46,602 nucleotides of DNA, from UHGV virus genome UHGV-0186543; one strand, written 5' to 3'. Positions 2,719 through 35,871 of this stretch are shown here, piece by piece (the stretch's first letter is position 1; each line of letters starts with the position of its first letter). The position numbers and the translations under genes are program-made. The notes below the pieces were generated by a model. The model saw nothing but the letters and a program-made list of their open reading frames with translations. It searched no databases and was not told where the DNA came from. The DNA is from a virus.

Positions 2719-4110
2719 TTAAAATGGGTCCGTATTAAAGTTTTTGTTTGAATACCGTTTTTCACGTTTTCTCGGTTGCTCTGCCTCCTTCTGGATGCGT
2801 AATTTTTCGCGTGCTACGTGTTGATCAATTGGCAGGAAATGCCCATTCCGGAATTCCTGATAAATAATTTCACCTGCCCCGCCAGAACGGTTTTTACCGA
2901 TAATCACCTCGGCGATACCCTTTGCAGGTGAATCAGGTGTGTAAACTTCATCGCGGTACAAAAACAAAATGCTGTCAGCGTCCTGCTCAACACTGCCGGA
3001 ATCGCGCAGGTCCGACATCACCGGGCGACGCTGGCCAGCAGGTCGAGAATCCACCTGGCGGGAAAGCTGGCTAAGAGCAAAAACAGGGGTATGCAGACGC
3101 ATGGCCATAGTCTTCATGTTGCGGGAGATATGCCCGACAGCGAGATCGTGGCGCTCGGCCTTCGGTTTTTTGATCAGGCCCATGTAATCAACACCAATCA
3201 ACTTCAGGTGCGGATAACGGCGTTTATGAGTCTCTGCAATGGCGCGGATCTGCTCAATCGTCAAATCAGTGGCATCAACAATCCAGATATCGCGATCCTG
3301 CATGATTGCAAGCGCGGCGGTTAATCTGGTCAAATCCTCATCGTCCATTTCTTTTGGATTACGCAGACGCGACGTGGACATATTCCCAGCCCCGGCAACG
3401 GTACGTTCAACAATCTGCTGAGCGCCCATTTCCATGCTGAAAAACAGTGCGCCGCCGCCATCTGCGGTAACGCCATCGATAATCTTCAGGGTAAATTCCG
3501 TTTTCCCCATGCCTGGACGACCGGCAACCACAACAAGGTCGGTCATGTTGATACCGCCCAGGGCGACATCCAGATCCTCGACTCCGGTTTTCAGCATCAT
3601 TTCCTGCGCGTCGCCAGACATCCGTTTATCAACGGTGTCAATGTAGAGCGGTAACAGCTCTTTGATGTGTACCGGCTGGACTGTGCCGGTAGCGGCGCTC
3701 ATATCCAGCACCTGAGCAACATGAGATTCAATAACCTCATCACGCTGACTCTGGTTTACAGCGTTACGGATACCATCCGCGCCAGATTGCAACAATGCCG
3801 CCATTTTGCGGCTCCGCCATGCCCGCACCATTTTCCCAGCATAGCCTTTCAGATTCGGTACCGTTGCCGGGATCCGGGATATTTGAGACAGATCCGCAAG
3901 GCTGGAACCGCCCAGCGCTTCGCTGATAAACAACATGTCGATCATGCCGTTCGCCAGTGCCTGCTTTTTGATTTCGCTGAAAGCGCGACGGTGAAACACG
4001 ATGCTGAAGGCTTCCTCCGGAGTAGTGGCAATCACATCAAACGCGTCAGGCGTCGCGCCACCGTTAATCAGACCAGCGAGAACGATCGCTTCCAGTTCTT
4101 CTGGATTCAT
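2719..4110 (-). CDS. dnaB: replicative DNA helicase, DnaB family
   Basis: 463 aa with Walker A GRPGMGKTEF, DnaB C-terminal motifs (ALSQLSRQVDSR, LRDSGSVEQDAD) and a DnaB-like N-terminal domain. Confidence 0.9.
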   Translation of the reverse strand: MNPEELEAIVLAGLINGGATPDAFDVIATTPEEAFSIVFHRRAFSEIKKQALANGMIDMLFISEALGGSSLADLSQISRIPATVPNLKGYAGKMVRAWRSRKMAALLQSGADGIRNAVNQSQRDEVIESHVAQVLDMSAATGTVQPVHIKELLPLYIDTVDKRMSGDAQEMMLKTGVEDLDVALGGINMTDLVVVAGRPGMGKTEFTLKIIDGVTADGGGALFFSMEMGAQQIVERTVAGAGNMSTSRLRNPKEMDDEDLTRLTAALAIMQDRDIWIVDATDLTIEQIRAIAETHKRRYPHLKLIGVDYMGLIKKPKAERHDLAVGHISRNMKTMAMRLHTPVFALSQLSRQVDSRPAGQRRPVMSDLRDSGSVEQDADSILFLYRDEVYTPDSPAKGIAEVIIGKNRSGGAGEIIYQEFRNGHFLPIDQHVAREKLRIQKEAEQPRKREKRYSNKNFNTDPF

Positions 4111-5437: not shown

Positions 5438-5914
5438 TCATGCATGGTGGCCTTGCGCAGTGCTTATCACTGCCCCTCGCGTCGCTACCAGCGCCGCTAT
5501 TGCTTCGTCAATTTCCTGGATAGTTAACTCTGGCGCGAAGTGGAGATGTACAGCGTTAATCGCTTCCACCCCTTCTTTTGCCGCCAGCGTTGCCAGCAAA
5601 ACGGGATCGCCCGGCGACTCCAGACGCGCCCGCCGTTCTGCGGGTAGCACGGCTTTCATCACACTGGCCAGCACCTGAGTTTTTCGGCGCGCCGCCGTTG
5701 TCTCGCCACGTAACCAGCGAAAGATTTTCTGCCGGTTGTTGTTGATGGCTCTCCAGTCCACGTTACCGTCCGCGTCCTCAAATTCATGTAGTCTCAACTC
5801 ATCATTGCGTCCCTGACTGAACCAGGCCCGGCAGATTTCAATTGTGACGAGTTCCTGCCCTGCCCTTGCCGCCCAGGTCAAAATCTCTTTTTGTAATTCC
5901 TCTGGGTTTTCCAT
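5438..5914 (-). CDS. YdaT-family protein (CII-like regulator position)
   Basis: 158 aa immediately downstream of the cro-like gene. The segment KIFRWLRGETTAARRKTQVLASVMKAVLPAERRARL resembles my recollection of Rac YdaT (YHRWLKGETKTQREKIQKLIPAILAILPRELRHRL). Confidence 0.55.
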   Translation of the reverse strand: MENPEELQKEILTWAARAGQELVTIEICRAWFSQGRNDELRLHEFEDADGNVDWRAINNNRQKIFRWLRGETTAARRKTQVLASVMKAVLPAERRARLESPGDPVLLATLAAKEGVEAINAVHLHFAPELTIQEIDEAIAALVATRGAVISTAQGHHA

Positions 5915-5973: not shown

Positions 5974-6171
5974 CTAAGCTTTTTCATGTTTTGGAACATC
6001 GTAAAAAGTCGGGTCATATTTCAGTGCTCCGTTAGTGATATGGTCGAGTCGAGCAGCTCGCTTTTCAGGAACTGTTGCCCCCCAACGAGTAACCGCCACT
6101 TGAGATATACCCAGCACCTTGGCTGTGGCTGTCTTTGAACCAAAAAAACTAATAACCGTCTCTGTTTTCAT
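5974..6171 (-). CDS. Cro/YdaS-like HTH regulator
   Basis: 65 aa with HTH KTATAKVLGISQVAVTRW. Divergent from the repressor gene. SD GGAGGG upstream of the ATG. Confidence 0.8.
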   Translation of the reverse strand: MKTETVISFFGSKTATAKVLGISQVAVTRWGATVPEKRAARLDHITNGALKYDPTFYDVPKHEKA

Positions 6172-6239: not shown

Positions 6240-6653
6240 ATGAGGATGAAGAATTTGATGCTTAGCGACCGTTTATCTCAAAGACGCAAACAGCTTGGTC
6301 TAACCCAACAACAGCTTGCTGATATGGTTGGAAGATCGAGTGTGAGCGTTTTTAAATGGGAAAGCGGACAAAATGAACCAAAGGGTCAGAACTTGCTGGC
6401 TTTGGCCAATGCACTTAAGTGTTCTGCCACATGGCTGCTTTTTGGTGACGAAGACCAGGCACCAACTCCGGTAGACGAATTACCAACAGAGCTGGATTCA
6501 CGTCAAAAAAGATTGTTAGAGTTATTTGATTCATTACCCGAGTCAGAAAAAGAAAAGCAACTAATTGAATTAGAAGATAAAGTTGAAAACTTTAATCGTT
6601 TATTTGAAGAGTTACTGGTTACCAGAAAGAAACTAACCCCCACCAAAAAATAA
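6240..6653 (+). CDS. CI-type repressor, XRE-family HTH, no S24 peptidase domain
   Basis: 137 aa. HTH LTQQQLADMVGRSSVSVFKWESG. Acidic, coiled-coil-like C-terminus. Too short for, and lacking, a LexA/CI autocleavage domain. Start could be 6240 (nearly leaderless) or ATG 6258. Confidence 0.85.
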   Translation: MRMKNLMLSDRLSQRRKQLGLTQQQLADMVGRSSVSVFKWESGQNEPKGQNLLALANALKCSATWLLFGDEDQAPTPVDELPTELDSRQKRLLELFDSLPESEKEKQLIELEDKVENFNRLFEELLVTRKKLTPTKK

Positions 6654-6656
6654 AAT

Positions 6657-6692
6657 AAAGGCAATGTTTTCAATGCATTGCCTTTATTTTTA
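6657..6692 (+). terminator. intrinsic terminator after the repressor gene
   Basis: AAAGGCAATG ... CATTGCCTTT stem (6657-6666 / 6676-6685) followed by ATTTTTA. Confidence 0.75.
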
Positions 6693-6701
6693 CCCCAAAT
6701 A

Positions 6702-6752
6702 CTAACCTTTGTTATAAAACGCCTTGCACATAAAATTACCTTTAGTTATATT
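6702..6752 (+). promoter_or_regulatory. candidate PL promoter with operator-like sites
   Basis: TTGCAC (6724-6729), 17 nt, TATATT (6747-6752). CTAACctttGTTA at 6702-6714 matches the PR operators. A weaker TTACctttaGTTA at 6737-6749 has an N5 spacer. Confidence 0.55.
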
Positions 6753-6800
6753 CATTCCATCAACAACGCTTACCCAGCGGCAGTTGTTCAGAAACAAGTT

Positions 6801-6823
6801 CTGACAGCCGGAAAGACGGCACC
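6801..6823 (+). repeat. 23-bp direct repeat, copy 1
   Basis: ctgacagccggaaagacggcacc, identical to 7254-7276. Confidence 0.9.
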
Positions 6824-7108
6824 AAATTTTGCGCGTCGGCGCCAACACGATGACAGAGGGAAAGACTTCACCGGCATATGGCACATGTGTCGAAGCGGTC
6901 TGGATGGAAGCGGAGCCTTAACGCGTTGTCTCCATAGCAGGTAGCCGGAATGTGCAAGCCACAGCCAGGTATGAGCGATTGATTCACCATCAAGGCGATA
7001 CGGTGTGACCACCAGGGAAGAGTCCTGGCTACAACACGAGAGCGCACTTCATCGACTCAACTTTGAGCTTTGTCGTTAAATTTTGAAATGGCGGAGTGCG
7101 CTCCCGGT

Positions 7109-7173
7109 TGTGGTGAACAGGTGTTTAACGGGAACTCCCTGCCCGTTACCCGGTTCGATTCCGGGCGCTACAC
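7109..7173 (+). ncRNA. tRNA-like element (T-arm plus acceptor-like stem), not a canonical tRNA
   Basis: CCCGG-TTCGATT-CCGGG T-arm at 7149-7165. 7166-7172 CGCTACA can pair with 7109-7115 TGTGGTG (two G-U pairs). The interior is only 33 nt, with no D-arm and a 9-nt central loop. Confidence 0.3.
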
Positions 7174-7253
7174 CGTAATTATTGGGACCCTCTGGTGAAA
7201 GCCAGAGCCTCTCGCAGAGAGGCGCAACGAGGAAAGACCGGGCATGACCAGCC

Positions 7254-7276
7254 CTGACAGCCGGAAAGACGGCACC
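7254..7276 (+). repeat. 23-bp direct repeat, copy 2
   Basis: ctgacagccggaaagacggcacc, identical to 6801-6823 and 453 bp downstream of it. Confidence 0.9.
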
Positions 7277-7430
7277 CTTTAGATGGCAAAAGACCCGCAC
7301 AAGGCGGGCCAGTTACCCCGAACGGCGACCAAACCATTCGGATATGGTGCAAGGGACCAACCTTACACCGAGGAAAGACCAACGACAGAGCCGCTGATCG
7401 GTTCTGAGTATACCCCACCAAGGAGTCGCT

Positions 7431-7751
7431 ATGGAAGCGCGCACCATCCCAGTAACACTCTTTATTAATTATGCAACTTCAACTTTCAGCCACGAAAAGC
7501 TGCTTGTTGCGACTGTTGATATGTCAAAAAATTTTCCAGACAGGTACATCCTTCTGGAAAGCCGCGAAATTGAAATTACCGTCAACCAGCCCCAGCCAAT
7601 CGACATCATCGGTTTACAGGTCGAGCAACTGCGTGAACAAAAACAGAAAACAGTCGCCGAAGCCCAACAGCGTATTGCTGCTATCGATGACAAAATCCAG
7701 CAGTTACTTTGCATCGAATACACGCCAGATACTGATGAAATCCCCTACTAA
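7431..7751 (+). CDS. hypothetical early-left protein (106 aa)
   Basis: ATG with AAGGAG 7 nt upstream. C-terminal coiled-coil-like segment. First gene after the long leader. Confidence 0.6.
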   Translation: MEARTIPVTLFINYATSTFSHEKLLVATVDMSKNFPDRYILLESREIEITVNQPQPIDIIGLQVEQLREQKQKTVAEAQQRIAAIDDKIQQLLCIEYTPDTDEIPY

Positions 7752-11017: not shown

Positions 11018-11216
11018 ATCAAAGCAATGTGAGGCTCTTCGCCGGGCTGGAATTTTCTTCATGGAAAGGGCTGACGGGCACCCAAAAACAACCTGGGGCC
11101 ATTTCATGAACCCAATAAAATTTCGCAATTTACAGGAGGTGACGACGCGAAAAGATGATGAACCTGATTTTGGAGCAATATTTAATGGCCGGAAAGAGAA
11201 AGAACCCAGCAGATAA
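10953..11216 (+). CDS. excisionase-like protein (DUF4224-type)
   Basis: 87 aa. ITREEMVELTGSPLKSKQCEALRRAGIFFMERADGHP matches the DUF4224 pattern usually found just upstream of phage integrases. Leader TGAGGAAAGACC abuts the ATG. Confidence 0.65.
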   Translation: MRSDHDIITREEMVELTGSPLKSKQCEALRRAGIFFMERADGHPKTTWGHFMNPIKFRNLQEVTTRKDDEPDFGAIFNGRKEKEPSR

Positions 11217-12201
11217 CTGGATGCCGCCTCGTGTTTACCAGGGCAAAGCGGCCTACGAATTCAGGAATAAAGATAACAAAGCGATACGCCTGTGCGCATT
11301 GGATGCGCCACGATCAGCCGTATGGCTGGCATATGAAAAAGCGGTCGGTGACGAAAAAGAAAGAAATACTTTTCAGGCGCTCGCGGAACAATTCATGACC
11401 TCCCCTGATTTTATGGATTTGGCAGTCGAAACCAGGAAAGACTACACAAAATATTCCGGAAAAGTTCTGCCTGTCTTCGGGAAGATCGACCCGGATAAAA
11501 TCAAACCTGAACATATTCGGCGCTATATGGATCAACGCGGTTTATCAAGCCGAACTCAGGCAAACAGGGAAAAAAGCTTTATGTCCAGGGTATTCCGTTG
11601 GGGTTATGAACGAGGTTATGTCCAGAGGAATCCTTGTCAGGGAGTTAAGCAGTTTAAAGAGACAGCACGCGAACGTTATATTACGGATGAAGAATATCAG
11701 GCCGTTTATGAAGTATCTCCTGATGTTGTTCGCGTGGCAATGGAGATTGCCTACTTATGCGTGGCCAGACAGAGTGATGTACTTTCATTGCAGAAAGACC
11801 AGCTGTTCGATTCCGGGATCTACATTCGTCAGGGAAAAACCGGCGTTAAGCAAATCAAAGCCTGGTCGCCTCGTCTGCAGAAAGCGATAGCTCTGGCTCG
11901 TTCTCTGCCATTAAAACCGGGAATCAGTAGCCTGTTTGTGATTCATCAAACTACCGGAGGCAAGTACACCCGTGATGGTTTTAACTCTCGTTGGCGTGAT
12001 GTCAAAGCGGCAGCACAGGAAAAATATCCTCATCTGCAAATAGACTTCACATTTCATGATCTGAAAGCAAAAGGTATCTCTGATCTGGAAGGCAGCCTGG
12101 AAGAGAAGCAAGCAATTTCCGGGCATAAGAACCCACGACAGACAGCAGCATATGACCGAAAAGTTAAAGTAGTGCCCGTAGTTGGTGGCCAGAGAAAATG
12201 A
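11185..12201 (+). CDS. int: tyrosine site-specific integrase
   Basis: Start at ATG 11185 (MAGKRKNPADNWMPPRVYQGK). Catalytic-domain motifs ARQSDVLSL, HDLKAKG and GHKNPRQTAAYDR. Adjacent to the tRNA-derived att core. Confidence 0.9.
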   Translation: MAGKRKNPADNWMPPRVYQGKAAYEFRNKDNKAIRLCALDAPRSAVWLAYEKAVGDEKERNTFQALAEQFMTSPDFMDLAVETRKDYTKYSGKVLPVFGKIDPDKIKPEHIRRYMDQRGLSSRTQANREKSFMSRVFRWGYERGYVQRNPCQGVKQFKETARERYITDEEYQAVYEVSPDVVRVAMEIAYLCVARQSDVLSLQKDQLFDSGIYIRQGKTGVKQIKAWSPRLQKAIALARSLPLKPGISSLFVIHQTTGGKYTRDGFNSRWRDVKAAAQEKYPHLQIDFTFHDLKAKGISDLEGSLEEKQAISGHKNPRQTAAYDRKVKVVPVVGGQRK

Positions 12202-12261: not shown

Positions 12262-12290
12262 TACAAAAAAACCACCCGAAGGTGGTTTCA
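12262..12290 (-). terminator. intrinsic terminator downstream of the tRNA-derived segment
   Basis: Minus strand: ACCACC-ttcg-GGTGGT followed by TTTTTTTG. Would terminate a tRNA gene reconstituted upon integration. Confidence 0.65.
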
Positions 12291-12331
12291 CGACACTGCT
12301 TATTGCTTTGATTTTATTCTTATCTTTCCCA

Positions 12332-12387
12332 TGGTACCCGGAGCGGGACTTGAACCCGCACAGCGCGAACGCCGAGGGATTTTAAAT
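12332..12387 (-). other. att core: 3'-terminal 56 nt of tRNA-Leu(UAA) (leuZ-type), partial tRNA only
   Basis: The reverse complement reads TTTAAAATCCCTCGGCGTTCGCGCTGTGCGGGTTCAAGTCCCGCTCCGGGTACCA. This is the anticodon loop through CCA of enterobacterial tRNA-Leu(UAA) as I recall it. The 5' half of the tRNA is absent. Confidence 0.8.
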
Positions 12388-35199: not shown

Positions 35200-35871
35200 T
35201 TATACGCAAACGTCGTCTAAATGGTTTTGATAATGATGCAAAGTTGCAAGAAGTGCCACTTCATCAAGTGCTCTCACCGCCTCTTTCATTCCTGCCCAGT
35301 GCGGGGAGTATGTTTCGCACCAGGTGGAACGAGAAACAGACAACATTCCAGCTAGCGCAGATCCGGCCATCTCCTTAAAATCCTCGCGTTTATTTGATGC
35401 TGCGACCGCCTGCACGGACAACCACACCAACGAAAGCAGGCGCTTAACTACTTTTCTCTGAGTTGACGAGGGGATGTGTCCTTTATAGCGACTCCAGACA
35501 GCCTCACAAATAGCTGTTTGGTGTTTGAATGCCAGGTTACCACCGTAGCAATAACGCAACCACGCTTGCTGACTTGCATCCAGCGAGTTCACAGAACGCC
35601 GCCAGGATGAATCAGCAAATTCAAAATCACTCATCGGCGGCGCGGGGCGACGTCTGCTGAAACTTTCCAGAGCGTAAACTGGCGTAACCAGAGCATCAAC
35701 GGTCCGGTCCTCCAGCTGCACACGGTGAATATGTTTGCGTGGGTATGCGTTTTTGTCTGCCGGTGGGTGCTCACACAATGCTTCCAGTTGCCCCTTAGAA
35801 CCACCAGACAAATCCCGCAATGCAGCGCGCAGTTTTATGCGGGTATATTCCAATAAATACTCGTTACTCAT
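35200..35871 (-). CDS. putative late-gene antiterminator (Q analogue)
   Basis: 223 aa, placed immediately upstream of the terminator-containing spacer and lysis cassette. Assignment is mainly positional. Confidence 0.55.
   Translation of the reverse strand: MSNEYLLEYTRIKLRAALRDLSGGSKGQLEALCEHPPADKNAYPRKHIHRVQLEDRTVDALVTPVYALESFSRRRPAPPMSDFEFADSSWRRSVNSLDASQQAWLRYCYGGNLAFKHQTAICEAVWSRYKGHIPSSTQRKVVKRLLSLVWLSVQAVAASNKREDFKEMAGSALAGMLSVSRSTWCETYSPHWAGMKEAVRALDEVALLATLHHYQNHLDDVCV

Follow-up and report, generated by a model that had tools for sequence, protein, structure and literature searches.

Several described systems come close to the element treated here, the untranslated 5' leader of a repressor-controlled early-left operon, about 675 nucleotides (nt) long, at positions 6758-7430 of virus genome UHGV-0186543; the whole 46,602-nt stretch, referred to below as the window, is a lambdoid temperate phage genome. 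The N-less lambdoid phage HK022 carries an RNA element (putL/putR) right after its PL promoter, with two stem-loops at the 5' end and a terminator downstream. The leader has a similar predicted layout, the terminator being found in relatives of the phage, but it lacks sequence similarity to put, exists as a single copy with shorter 5' hairpins (A and B), has no terminator in the window, and contains a core RNA that is optional within the lineage. The nut sites of lambda and P22, which go together with N, also consist of small hairpins with purine-rich loops in an early leader. Relatives even have a hairpin with the loops of lambda boxB, and L090-type phages a consensus boxA right after the core, whereas the leader of the window has neither a boxA nor an N-like gene to go with it, and its loops are hexaloops and a GCA triloop.

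Other parallels concern RNAs made as products. In phage T4 the stable RNA species 1 and 2 of the transfer RNA (tRNA) cluster are structured RNAs other than tRNAs that are co-transcribed with tRNAs and freed by tRNA-processing enzymes. The core resembles them in arrangement, as it abuts the 5' end of tRNA-Arg(UCU), or of a tRNA-like domain in its place; no homology with the T4 species is expected, and processing of the core is something we infer. Prophage Qin makes DicF, a 53-nt base-pairing small RNA (sRNA) processed from a DicA-repressed operon, whose internal terminator is read through into the downstream genes. As in this dicBF operon, covered in PMC10448788, a non-coding RNA (ncRNA) is set within the long 5' stretch of an early operon that belongs to a lambdoid element and is under repressor control, and relatives likewise have an internal terminator with read-through. 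However, DicF and the core show no homology, the DicF model of Rfam has no match, and a 53-nt RNA stands against a pseudoknotted one of 167 nt with long invariant single-stranded stretches. GOLLD and ROOL are modular, highly structured phage-borne RNAs of unknown function that often lie near tRNA genes (PMC5737381, PMC12286853). The core shares with them its modular structure and a frequent tRNA neighbour, but is much smaller, has no Rfam match to either, is restricted to Enterobacterales and usually lies in early transcripts under repressor control.

A mobile structured RNA in the PL leader

The leader is a mosaic of RNA modules in which flanks typical of the lineage (6758-6869 and 7176-7430) enclose a cassette at 6869-7171, a horizontally mobile non-coding insert. 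The core of this cassette is a mobile structured RNA absent from Rfam, non-coding and with stems under selection. The cassette is made up as follows.

6869-7035, + strand: core RNA, 167 nt, pseudoknotted, with the invariant GGUAGCCGGAAUGUGCAAG at 6940-6958
7031-7111, + strand: S-module, a long closing stem around a variable insert
7110-7171, + strand: tRNA-like domain without a D arm, with acceptor-like GUGGUG (7110-7115) and CGCUAC (7166-7171)
7127-7147, in the tRNA-like domain: hairpin
7149-7165, in the tRNA-like domain: canonical T arm, CCCGG-UUCGAUU-CCGGG

An alignment of 26 core sequences supports five helices and one pseudoknot. Paired cells make up 95.7%, compared with 28-48% when partners are slid, and 11 pairs have changed on both sides (63 cells), values that none of 500 shuffles reached. 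The pseudoknot joins the hairpin loop CACC to GGUG, and the two are jointly changed to AACC and GGUU. Covariance model R1 finds a single copy in the window, at 6869-7035 and on the + strand only (141.6 bits, E 7e-45). No frame stays open throughout the family and the variable regions have lengths that are not divisible by three, while the same RNA modules occur at 70-93% identity across genera. Compensatory pair changes, strand specificity and non-coding character, the generic marks of a structured ncRNA, are thus all present.

A covariance-model scan of the leader against Rfam 15 gave no match at the gathering score and nothing credible at E values up to 10, whether for DicF, GOLLD, ROOL, RNase P, transfer-messenger RNA (tmRNA) or Y-RNA-like families. 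At the homologous loci Rfam recovers only true tRNAs and, elsewhere in locus L007, an int-alpA RNA. The searchable open literature on the element, on P1 ncRNAs and on prophage sRNAs does not describe the core either; the Pas sRNAs are different loci.

Distant BLAST matches of the leader fall in unannotated DNA of unrelated phages, and what is conserved there is a core of about 165 nt. Its invariant 19-mer GGTAGCCGGAATGTGCAAG occurs at at least 120 IMG/VR loci and in 24 GTDB species representatives: 22 Enterobacterales and two metagenome-assembled genome bins assigned to Bacillota/Oscillospiraceae, which are taken to be mis-binned contigs. At least 134 distinct contexts contain the core, about 48 of them with a tRNA adjoining on the same strand and about 27 in the PL leader of this phage's lineage; every context that could be assigned belongs to Enterobacterales. 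The core recurs after cI in at least four immunity-region types; in other lambdoid phages it stands shortly after cI in Stx2a (Stx2a_WGPS2), Stx2c, cdtI and mEp460 phages and in L090-type phages. In P1, P7 and D6 it lies between trnI (tRNA-Ile2) and ban, an interval without any feature in the curated P1 record. Epsilon15-like phages (SPN1S, Tyrion, PAT1, phiV10) and Klebsiella prophages carry the core unit between terminase and portal on the opposite strand, with its own promoter near a palindrome; where a tRNA is present, this unit ends in tRNA-Arg(UCU) and terminators.

Two of these settings have features of their own. At L090 (about 3330-3400; also L034 and L047) the core is followed by a hairpin and then by TGCTCTTTAACAA, the exact rrn/nut boxA consensus, so that in this lineage the core can sit just 5' of a classical nut-like site. 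The promoter of the epsilon15-like unit is followed by the palindrome ATTACC-N5-GGTAAT, which starts 17 nt after the -35 hexamer (L002 2925-2975, L007 2320-2365, L010 2315-2360) and suggests that the core RNA unit is under repressor control there too.

Across phages the whole cassette measures 300-490 nt; in the window it lies between hairpin hp2 (6856-6869) and the site that the terminator takes in relatives. It is optional, since most leaders pass straight from hp2 to the terminator and others hold an unrelated RNA in the same slot. The replacement is a different structured-looking RNA of about 150-250 nt placed exactly where the core would be (L005, about 3180-3420; L153, leader about +115 to +270). 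Neither the core model nor Rfam matches it in the strain-44 (L005) or L153 types, the strain-44 version is closed by a similar stem (CACAAUCAAAGAGCG/CGCUCUUUUUGAUUGUG), and it may be a second new RNA family.

Downstream of the core, the closing stem of the S-module pairs ACAAC..GAGCGCACU (7031-7048) with AGUGCGCUC..GUUGU (7095-7111). Other phages have compensatory variants of it, namely GAGAGCAUU/AGUGCUCUC, AAAGCGCGCU/AGCGCGCUUU and AAAGAGCG/CGCUCUUU. In about 30 contexts a genuine tRNA-Arg(UCU) starts immediately after ...GUUGUG, and in the window the tRNA-like domain takes that place. The domain is 86% identical to an early-left segment of Pectobacterium phage ZF40, with covariation of the acceptor (AGCG/CGCU), and departs from the cloverleaf in its missing D arm and a 9-nt loop. 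One further T-arm-like match in the window, at 11805-11824, lies inside int and was dismissed as a chance match.

An untranslated leader with a conserved hairpin array

The promoter that the original prediction placed upstream of the segment is present as a sigma-70-like candidate just 3' of the cI-like gene and its terminator, and conservation among relatives begins at its predicted +1, at about 6758-6760. The PR leader of the window, by comparison, is about 19 nt long. The two ends of the leader are set by these features.

6724-6752, + strand (rightward): candidate PL promoter, sigma-70-like, TTGCAC and TATATT separated by a 17-nt spacer
7420-7433, + strand: ribosome-binding site (RBS) AAGGAG (7420-7425) and ATG at 7431, the start of the first early-left gene

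This gene encodes an acidic product of 106 amino acids (aa) that matches phrog_2479 (function unknown) end to end (E 2.6e-51). The early-left operon runs from the 106-aa protein through exonuclease, a Gam-like Gp157 protein and xis to int.

The absence of a credible coding frame before 7431, also claimed originally, is borne out: the leader has only short open reading frames (ORFs) that overlap one another on both strands. The eight longest of these gave zero matches in PHROGs and a single sub-threshold match in Pfam (E 0.026; 14.9 bits, the cutoff being 27). In three Escherichia coli prophage relatives the equivalent gaps of 930-1010 nt are without a gene in the NCBI annotation, and the GenBank record of phage BUCT708 has one 37-aa hypothetical ORF in its gap. 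Some relatives do carry real small genes within the leader; tblastn with these against the leader of the window gave matches only from spurious ORFs overlapping homologous non-coding DNA. Elsewhere annotated hypothetical proteins overlap the conserved RNA modules, some on the opposite strand: gp37/gp36 of mEp460 (L242 2456-3009), gp54 of Tyrion (L007 2665-2826) and the ORF of BUCT708 (L001 4603-4716). These are probably annotation artefacts.

The leader is GC-rich, as had been noted (55.3%; the whole window has 47.7% and the cI region 37.8%), and its predicted stability is real by the standard of dinucleotide shuffles, the + strand folding at -246 kcal/mol compared with -216 +/- 6.5 for the controls (z -4.6). 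The - strand also folds better than its shuffles (z -3.95). The three hairpins singled out earlier, CTCTGG/CCAGAG at 7190-7207, GCCTCTC/GAGAGGC at 7207-7223 and CCCGC/GCGGG within 7292-7310, were all located and are conserved in relatives with compensatory changes.

Alignment with four relatives (a prophage of E. coli ST131, two other E. coli prophages and phage BUCT708) shows similarity beginning exactly at CATCAAC (6758), though the upstream promoters and operators differ. An IMG/VR scan with an 18-mer from the 5' end of the leader yielded 97 distinct leaders, the shortest of them 383-500 nt. They follow a common plan, which opens with hairpin A, hairpin B, YUGACAG and hp1 with its GAAAGA loop, hairpin C with a GUCG loop, and UGACAK and hp2, whose loop is again GAAAGA. 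There follow, in most relatives, GCUGUGURUAGUC and an intrinsic terminator, then optional twin hairpins, and Shine-Dalgarno (SD)-type GAGGAAAGACC motifs with a third GAAAGA hairpin. After hairpin E the plan closes with a pair of GACCAA-looped hairpins, a 20-nt conserved block and the RBS. The corresponding features of the window are listed here.

6762-6788, + strand: hairpin A (AACAAC...GTTGTT), separated from the predicted 5' end by 3-4 nt; 100% paired, invariant, no covariation
6789-6803, + strand: hairpin B (CAGAA-ACAAG-TTCTG), stem invariant, loop variable
6807-6820, + strand: hp1, GCCG-GAAAGA-CGGC after CTGACAG; covarying stem variants GCCCG/CGGGC, GTCTG/CAGGC and GTCCG/CGGGC
6831-6842, + strand: hairpin C, GCGC-GUCG-GCGC; two pairs change on both sides (UCGG/CCGA, GCGG/CCGC)
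6856-6869, + strand: hp2, GAGG-GAAAGA-CUUC after ATGACAG; variants GCGG/CCGC and GCGG/CUGC
7190-7223, + strand: twin hairpins CUCUGG-UGAAAG-CCAGAG and GCCUCUC-GCA-GAGAGGC, found in 25 of 97 leaders
7229-7239, + strand: SD-type GAGGAAAGACC, followed by a 12-codon mini-ORF (7244-7282) whose frame is not conserved in relatives
7260-7273, + strand: hp3, GCCG-GAAAGA-CGGC, the third hairpin with a GAAAGA loop
7292-7310, + strand: hairpin E, GACCCGC-ACAAG-GCGGGCC; variants GCCCAC/GUGGGC and ACCCAC/GUGGGU
7318-7341, + strand: D1, a hairpin with a GACCAA loop
7346-7369, + strand: D2, a 9-base-pair (bp) hairpin with a GACCAA loop; stem paired in each of at least eight different versions
7370-7380, + strand: second SD-type GAGGAAAGACC, without ATG here; ATG present in some relatives
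7394-7413, + strand: conserved block CTGATCGGTTCTGAGTATAC, just 5' of the RBS

Pairing holds in 99.4% of the cells of the 5' module and in 28-45% once partners are slid; hp1, C and hp2 change on both sides. Hairpin A is kept even in relatives whose leader goes directly into a gene. For the 3' module, MAFFT columns are unusable, since differences in loop length shift the register, and stems were counted by a loop-anchored tabulation: the GAAAGA loop stands on more than 12 different paired stems and the GACCAA loop on more than eight. The 23 nt at 7254-7276, which include hp3, are identical to those at 6801-6823.

These two loops repeat the ribosome-binding motif of the phage itself, GAGGAAAGACCAAUG, and both hexamers are also found unstructured, as GAG-GAAAGA-CCAAYG. 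The sequence GGAAAGAC has 10 copies in the window, where 1.4 are expected. Six of them lie on the + strand between 6810 and 7779, five in the leader and the sixth as the RBS of the exonuclease gene. Outside the leader, four of five copies stand directly 5' of start codons (2680-, 5398-, 7782+, 10953+), and this is therefore taken to be the preferred ribosome-binding sequence of the phage. The stretch GAGGAAAGACCGGGC at 7229-7243, with some patches of the core, resembles the P4 region of RNase P RNA; a fragment of that RNA was rejected, since the motif is an ordinary phage RBS found before four real genes and the RNase P models have no match.

Most relatives, though not all, have a strong intrinsic terminator with the GCUGUGURUAGUC module about 140-170 nt after the +1; in the examples shown it has a stem of 5-7 bp followed by six or seven T, and the ST131 relative is among those that have it. 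In leaders of the window type (also L171 and L223) this module is absent and the tRNA-like domain runs directly into the twin hairpins, which sit where relatives have the terminator module followed by twin hairpins. The window has lost its leader terminator by deletion. A terminator scan of the + strand found none in the leader and, over the remainder of the early-left operon, a single weak site at 11033 with a stem of 5 bp.

Smaller observations concern the 3' part of the array. Read on the - strand, hairpin E is a terminator-like hairpin with a T run (T6 in many relatives), flagged as a - strand terminator in the ST131 relative (L004 3699-3717). This is a hint of antisense transcription that comes into the leader from its right-hand side; a consensus scan for a - strand promoter that could feed it found none. 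The 20-nt block at 7394-7413, which reads CTGATCGGYTCTGAGTATAC, hardly changes among about 50 leader variants. Some relatives have it inside a short ORF, which begins at a perfect GAGGAAAGACCAATG and overlaps the first gene in a different frame; the window has no start codon for this ORF. A conserved small upstream gene here ('..LIGSEYT..') was considered and dropped, as the frame is opened by ATG in some relatives but not in the window or in the L157 or L153 types.

Possible roles of the cassette and the array

Because the cassette is optional, is found in the early transcripts of phages unrelated to one another and is attached to a tRNA or a tRNA mimic, it is read as a gene for a trans-acting RNA cargo freed by tRNA-processing enzymes. 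Of the roles proposed originally, a processed regulatory RNA or decoy is still a live reading for 6869-7171. In its full form, the favoured reading takes the cassette for a mobile, early-transcribed ncRNA that would be cut out by way of its tRNA-like handle, and the hairpin array for a device that stabilises or regulates the long leader. Drawn from anatomy and context, this reading has about an even chance of being right.

It would work as follows. The cassette would be an RNA "moron", the first product of PL on induction or infection. Enzymes of tRNA processing (RNase P, then 3' trimming) would recognise the mimic of acceptor and T arm or, in other phages, the real tRNA-Arg fused at the same position. 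Cleavage would free a stable RNA of core plus stem, acting in trans on a host or phage target that is possibly related to tRNA or to host defence. A 5'-terminal hairpin is an established stabiliser of E. coli mRNAs, and hairpin A may stabilise this transcript in the same way. Over the 675 untranslated nt the dense array would fend off Rho and RNases, and a factor that recognises the GGAAAGACC ribosome-binding sites may bind to it as well. In most relatives the array would flank an attenuator terminator, whose deletion here would leave the early-left genes constitutively read through once PL fires.

Several points weigh against this reading. The order is reversed in P1, where the core comes after the tRNA and not before it. 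ARAGORN found no tRNA or tmRNA gene in the whole window, and the best Rfam match of the tRNA-like domain, to tRNA-Sec, scores 17 bits against a gathering score of 47. At 4-6 bp the acceptor-like stem is short, two of its bases also belong to the S stem, and ST131-type relatives have not retained it. Release of the RNA and action in trans are steps that we infer from anatomy and context. As for the array, its loop sequences are more conserved than stabilisation alone would require. Hairpins A and B show no variation, which leaves their pairing unproven, and they could equally be a site at the DNA level or for protein binding.

How does a lambdoid phage without N read through a strong terminator placed before all of its early-left genes? 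The leader of the lineage poses this question, and it makes antitermination of the put or nut kind attractive for the relatives. That no N-type gene is visible was also claimed originally, and none was identified; the only antiterminator-like gene in the window is a late, Q-like one (35200-35871, - strand; phrog_304, E 6.5e-77), which HNH endonuclease and NinB genes adjoin. A scan for arginine-rich N-like sequences returned only many windows in alternative frames and is uninformative; one such string, 'ARQRRRAEK' at 5659-5787 (-), was discounted as an alternative frame of the YdaT-like gene. If hairpins A and B, alone or together with hp1, C and hp2, bound RNA polymerase from the nascent PL transcript and conferred resistance to terminators and Rho, expression of exo, gam, xis and int without N would be explained. 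As in putL, two adjacent stem-loops start 3-4 nt after the predicted +1; they are invariant across immunity types and kept even when a gene follows at once, and in most relatives there is a terminator downstream that must be read through. However, membership of the put family, suggested by the original prediction, fails: blastn-short of the HK022 putL and putR regions against the window gave chance 9-12-mers only, none in the 5' module, and no leader module has a second copy elsewhere in the window, behind PR included. The combined length of A and B is about 45 nt, where put has about 70 nt, and neither of them shows covariation. With its terminator gone and no convincing + strand terminator downstream, the window offers nothing intrinsic on which they could act. 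The core itself cannot be the antiterminator, as most leaders lack it and yet have the terminator. Antitermination of this kind by the leader is thus rather unlikely.

Five hairpins carrying two invariant hexaloops on freely covarying stems could instead be boxB-like sites. An RNA-binding protein, of either the phage or the host, would act there on termination or on the translation that starts from the GAGGAAAGACC RBSs. The two loop motifs together form the preferred RBS of the phage, the hairpins flank the attenuator terminator in relatives, and the second twin hairpin there, CCCUC-GAAAA/GAAGA-GAGGG, carries loops that we take to be those of lambda boxB. In the window this hairpin (7207-7223) has a GCA triloop, though, and the remaining loops are hexaloops. 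The leader has no boxA (no GCTCTT), and the sole boxA-like 9-mer of the window, at 2186 on the + strand, runs opposite to the local - strand transcription. No arginine-rich N-like protein or N-like family was found among the early genes, no gene of the operon lies upstream of the terminator, and hairpins stand on both of its sides. A nut-like role is accordingly improbable. Still less probable is a sponge or decoy, in which many GGA motifs, three in hairpin loops and two or three of SD type, would sequester CsrA, Hfq, S1 or ribosomes early in infection. CsrA recognises GGA in hairpin loops and at SD sites, which fits, and GGAAAGAC is strongly over-represented, with the five leader copies noted above; yet the conserved loop part AAAGA(C) is not required by CsrA and the GACCAA loops have no GGA. 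Decayed gene remnants, the other origin proposed at first, or recombination linkers without RNA function are very improbable, and the decayed-gene alternative is rejected. SD-type GAGGAAAGACC motifs without a gene do resemble orphaned gene starts, module junctions coincide with them, and small genes do exist in some relatives' leaders. But those genes are dissimilar to the leader of the window, no frame is open across the core family and its indels are not multiples of three, stems covary, no protein family matches, and modules are kept at 70-93% identity across genera. What stands of the cis-acting RNA first proposed is functional non-coding RNA sequence, conserved from the +1 and with covarying stems; it is not a single element, however, but a mosaic of at least two unrelated parts.

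A wider combination of these ideas is possible but tentative. The core may found an undescribed class of early, trans-acting phage RNA, spread over P1, epsilon15-like, Stx2 and Rac-like lambdoid phages, that moves with tRNAs or tRNA-like handles and acts on a host target such as a tRNA-directed defence or an RNA-processing enzyme. On this view the PL-proximal leader of lambdoid phages would be a landing pad reserved for such RNA cargo, with no fewer than two unrelated RNAs using the same slot, and the array would be a separate, new form of N-independent regulation of the early-left operon. A conserved pseudoknotted RNA has gone unannotated in much-studied phages, P1 and the Stx2 phages among them, and in a prophage frequent in E. 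coli ST131. The core, which is transcribed from the earliest active promoters, may add an RNA effector to the early toolkit of host takeover.

Neighbouring loci

The immunity region next to the leader comprises the following.

5438-5914, - strand: YdaT/cII-like gene, with replication genes farther left
5974-6171, - strand: P22-Cro-like gene
6240-6653, + strand: helix-turn-helix repressor (cI-like) gene, followed by a terminator at 6652-6690

A P1/P7-type immI module occupies 873-1070 and 33-869, both on the - strand. It comprises the C4 antisense RNA (74.5 bits), its a1/b1 targets and an isrK-like RNA (80.4 bits), then an anti-repressor gene (phrog_4792), and gives the phage a second, RNA-based layer of immunity. 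At the other end of the early-left operon, just beyond int (11155-12201) and a bidirectional-looking terminator (12268-12289), the reverse complement of a tRNA 3' part lies at 12330-12385 (-). It reads TGGTACCCGGAGCGGGACTTGAACCCGC..., probably belongs to tRNA-Leu(UAA) and is most likely the attP core, which implies integration into a tRNA-Leu gene. Among the relatives, the 'Stenotrophomonas' phages BUCT708 and BUCT709 (L001; OM816834, OM816835) share the enterobacterial immunity region and leader at about 78% identity, with the gene order of the E. coli prophages, so that their assignment to a Stenotrophomonas host looks doubtful.

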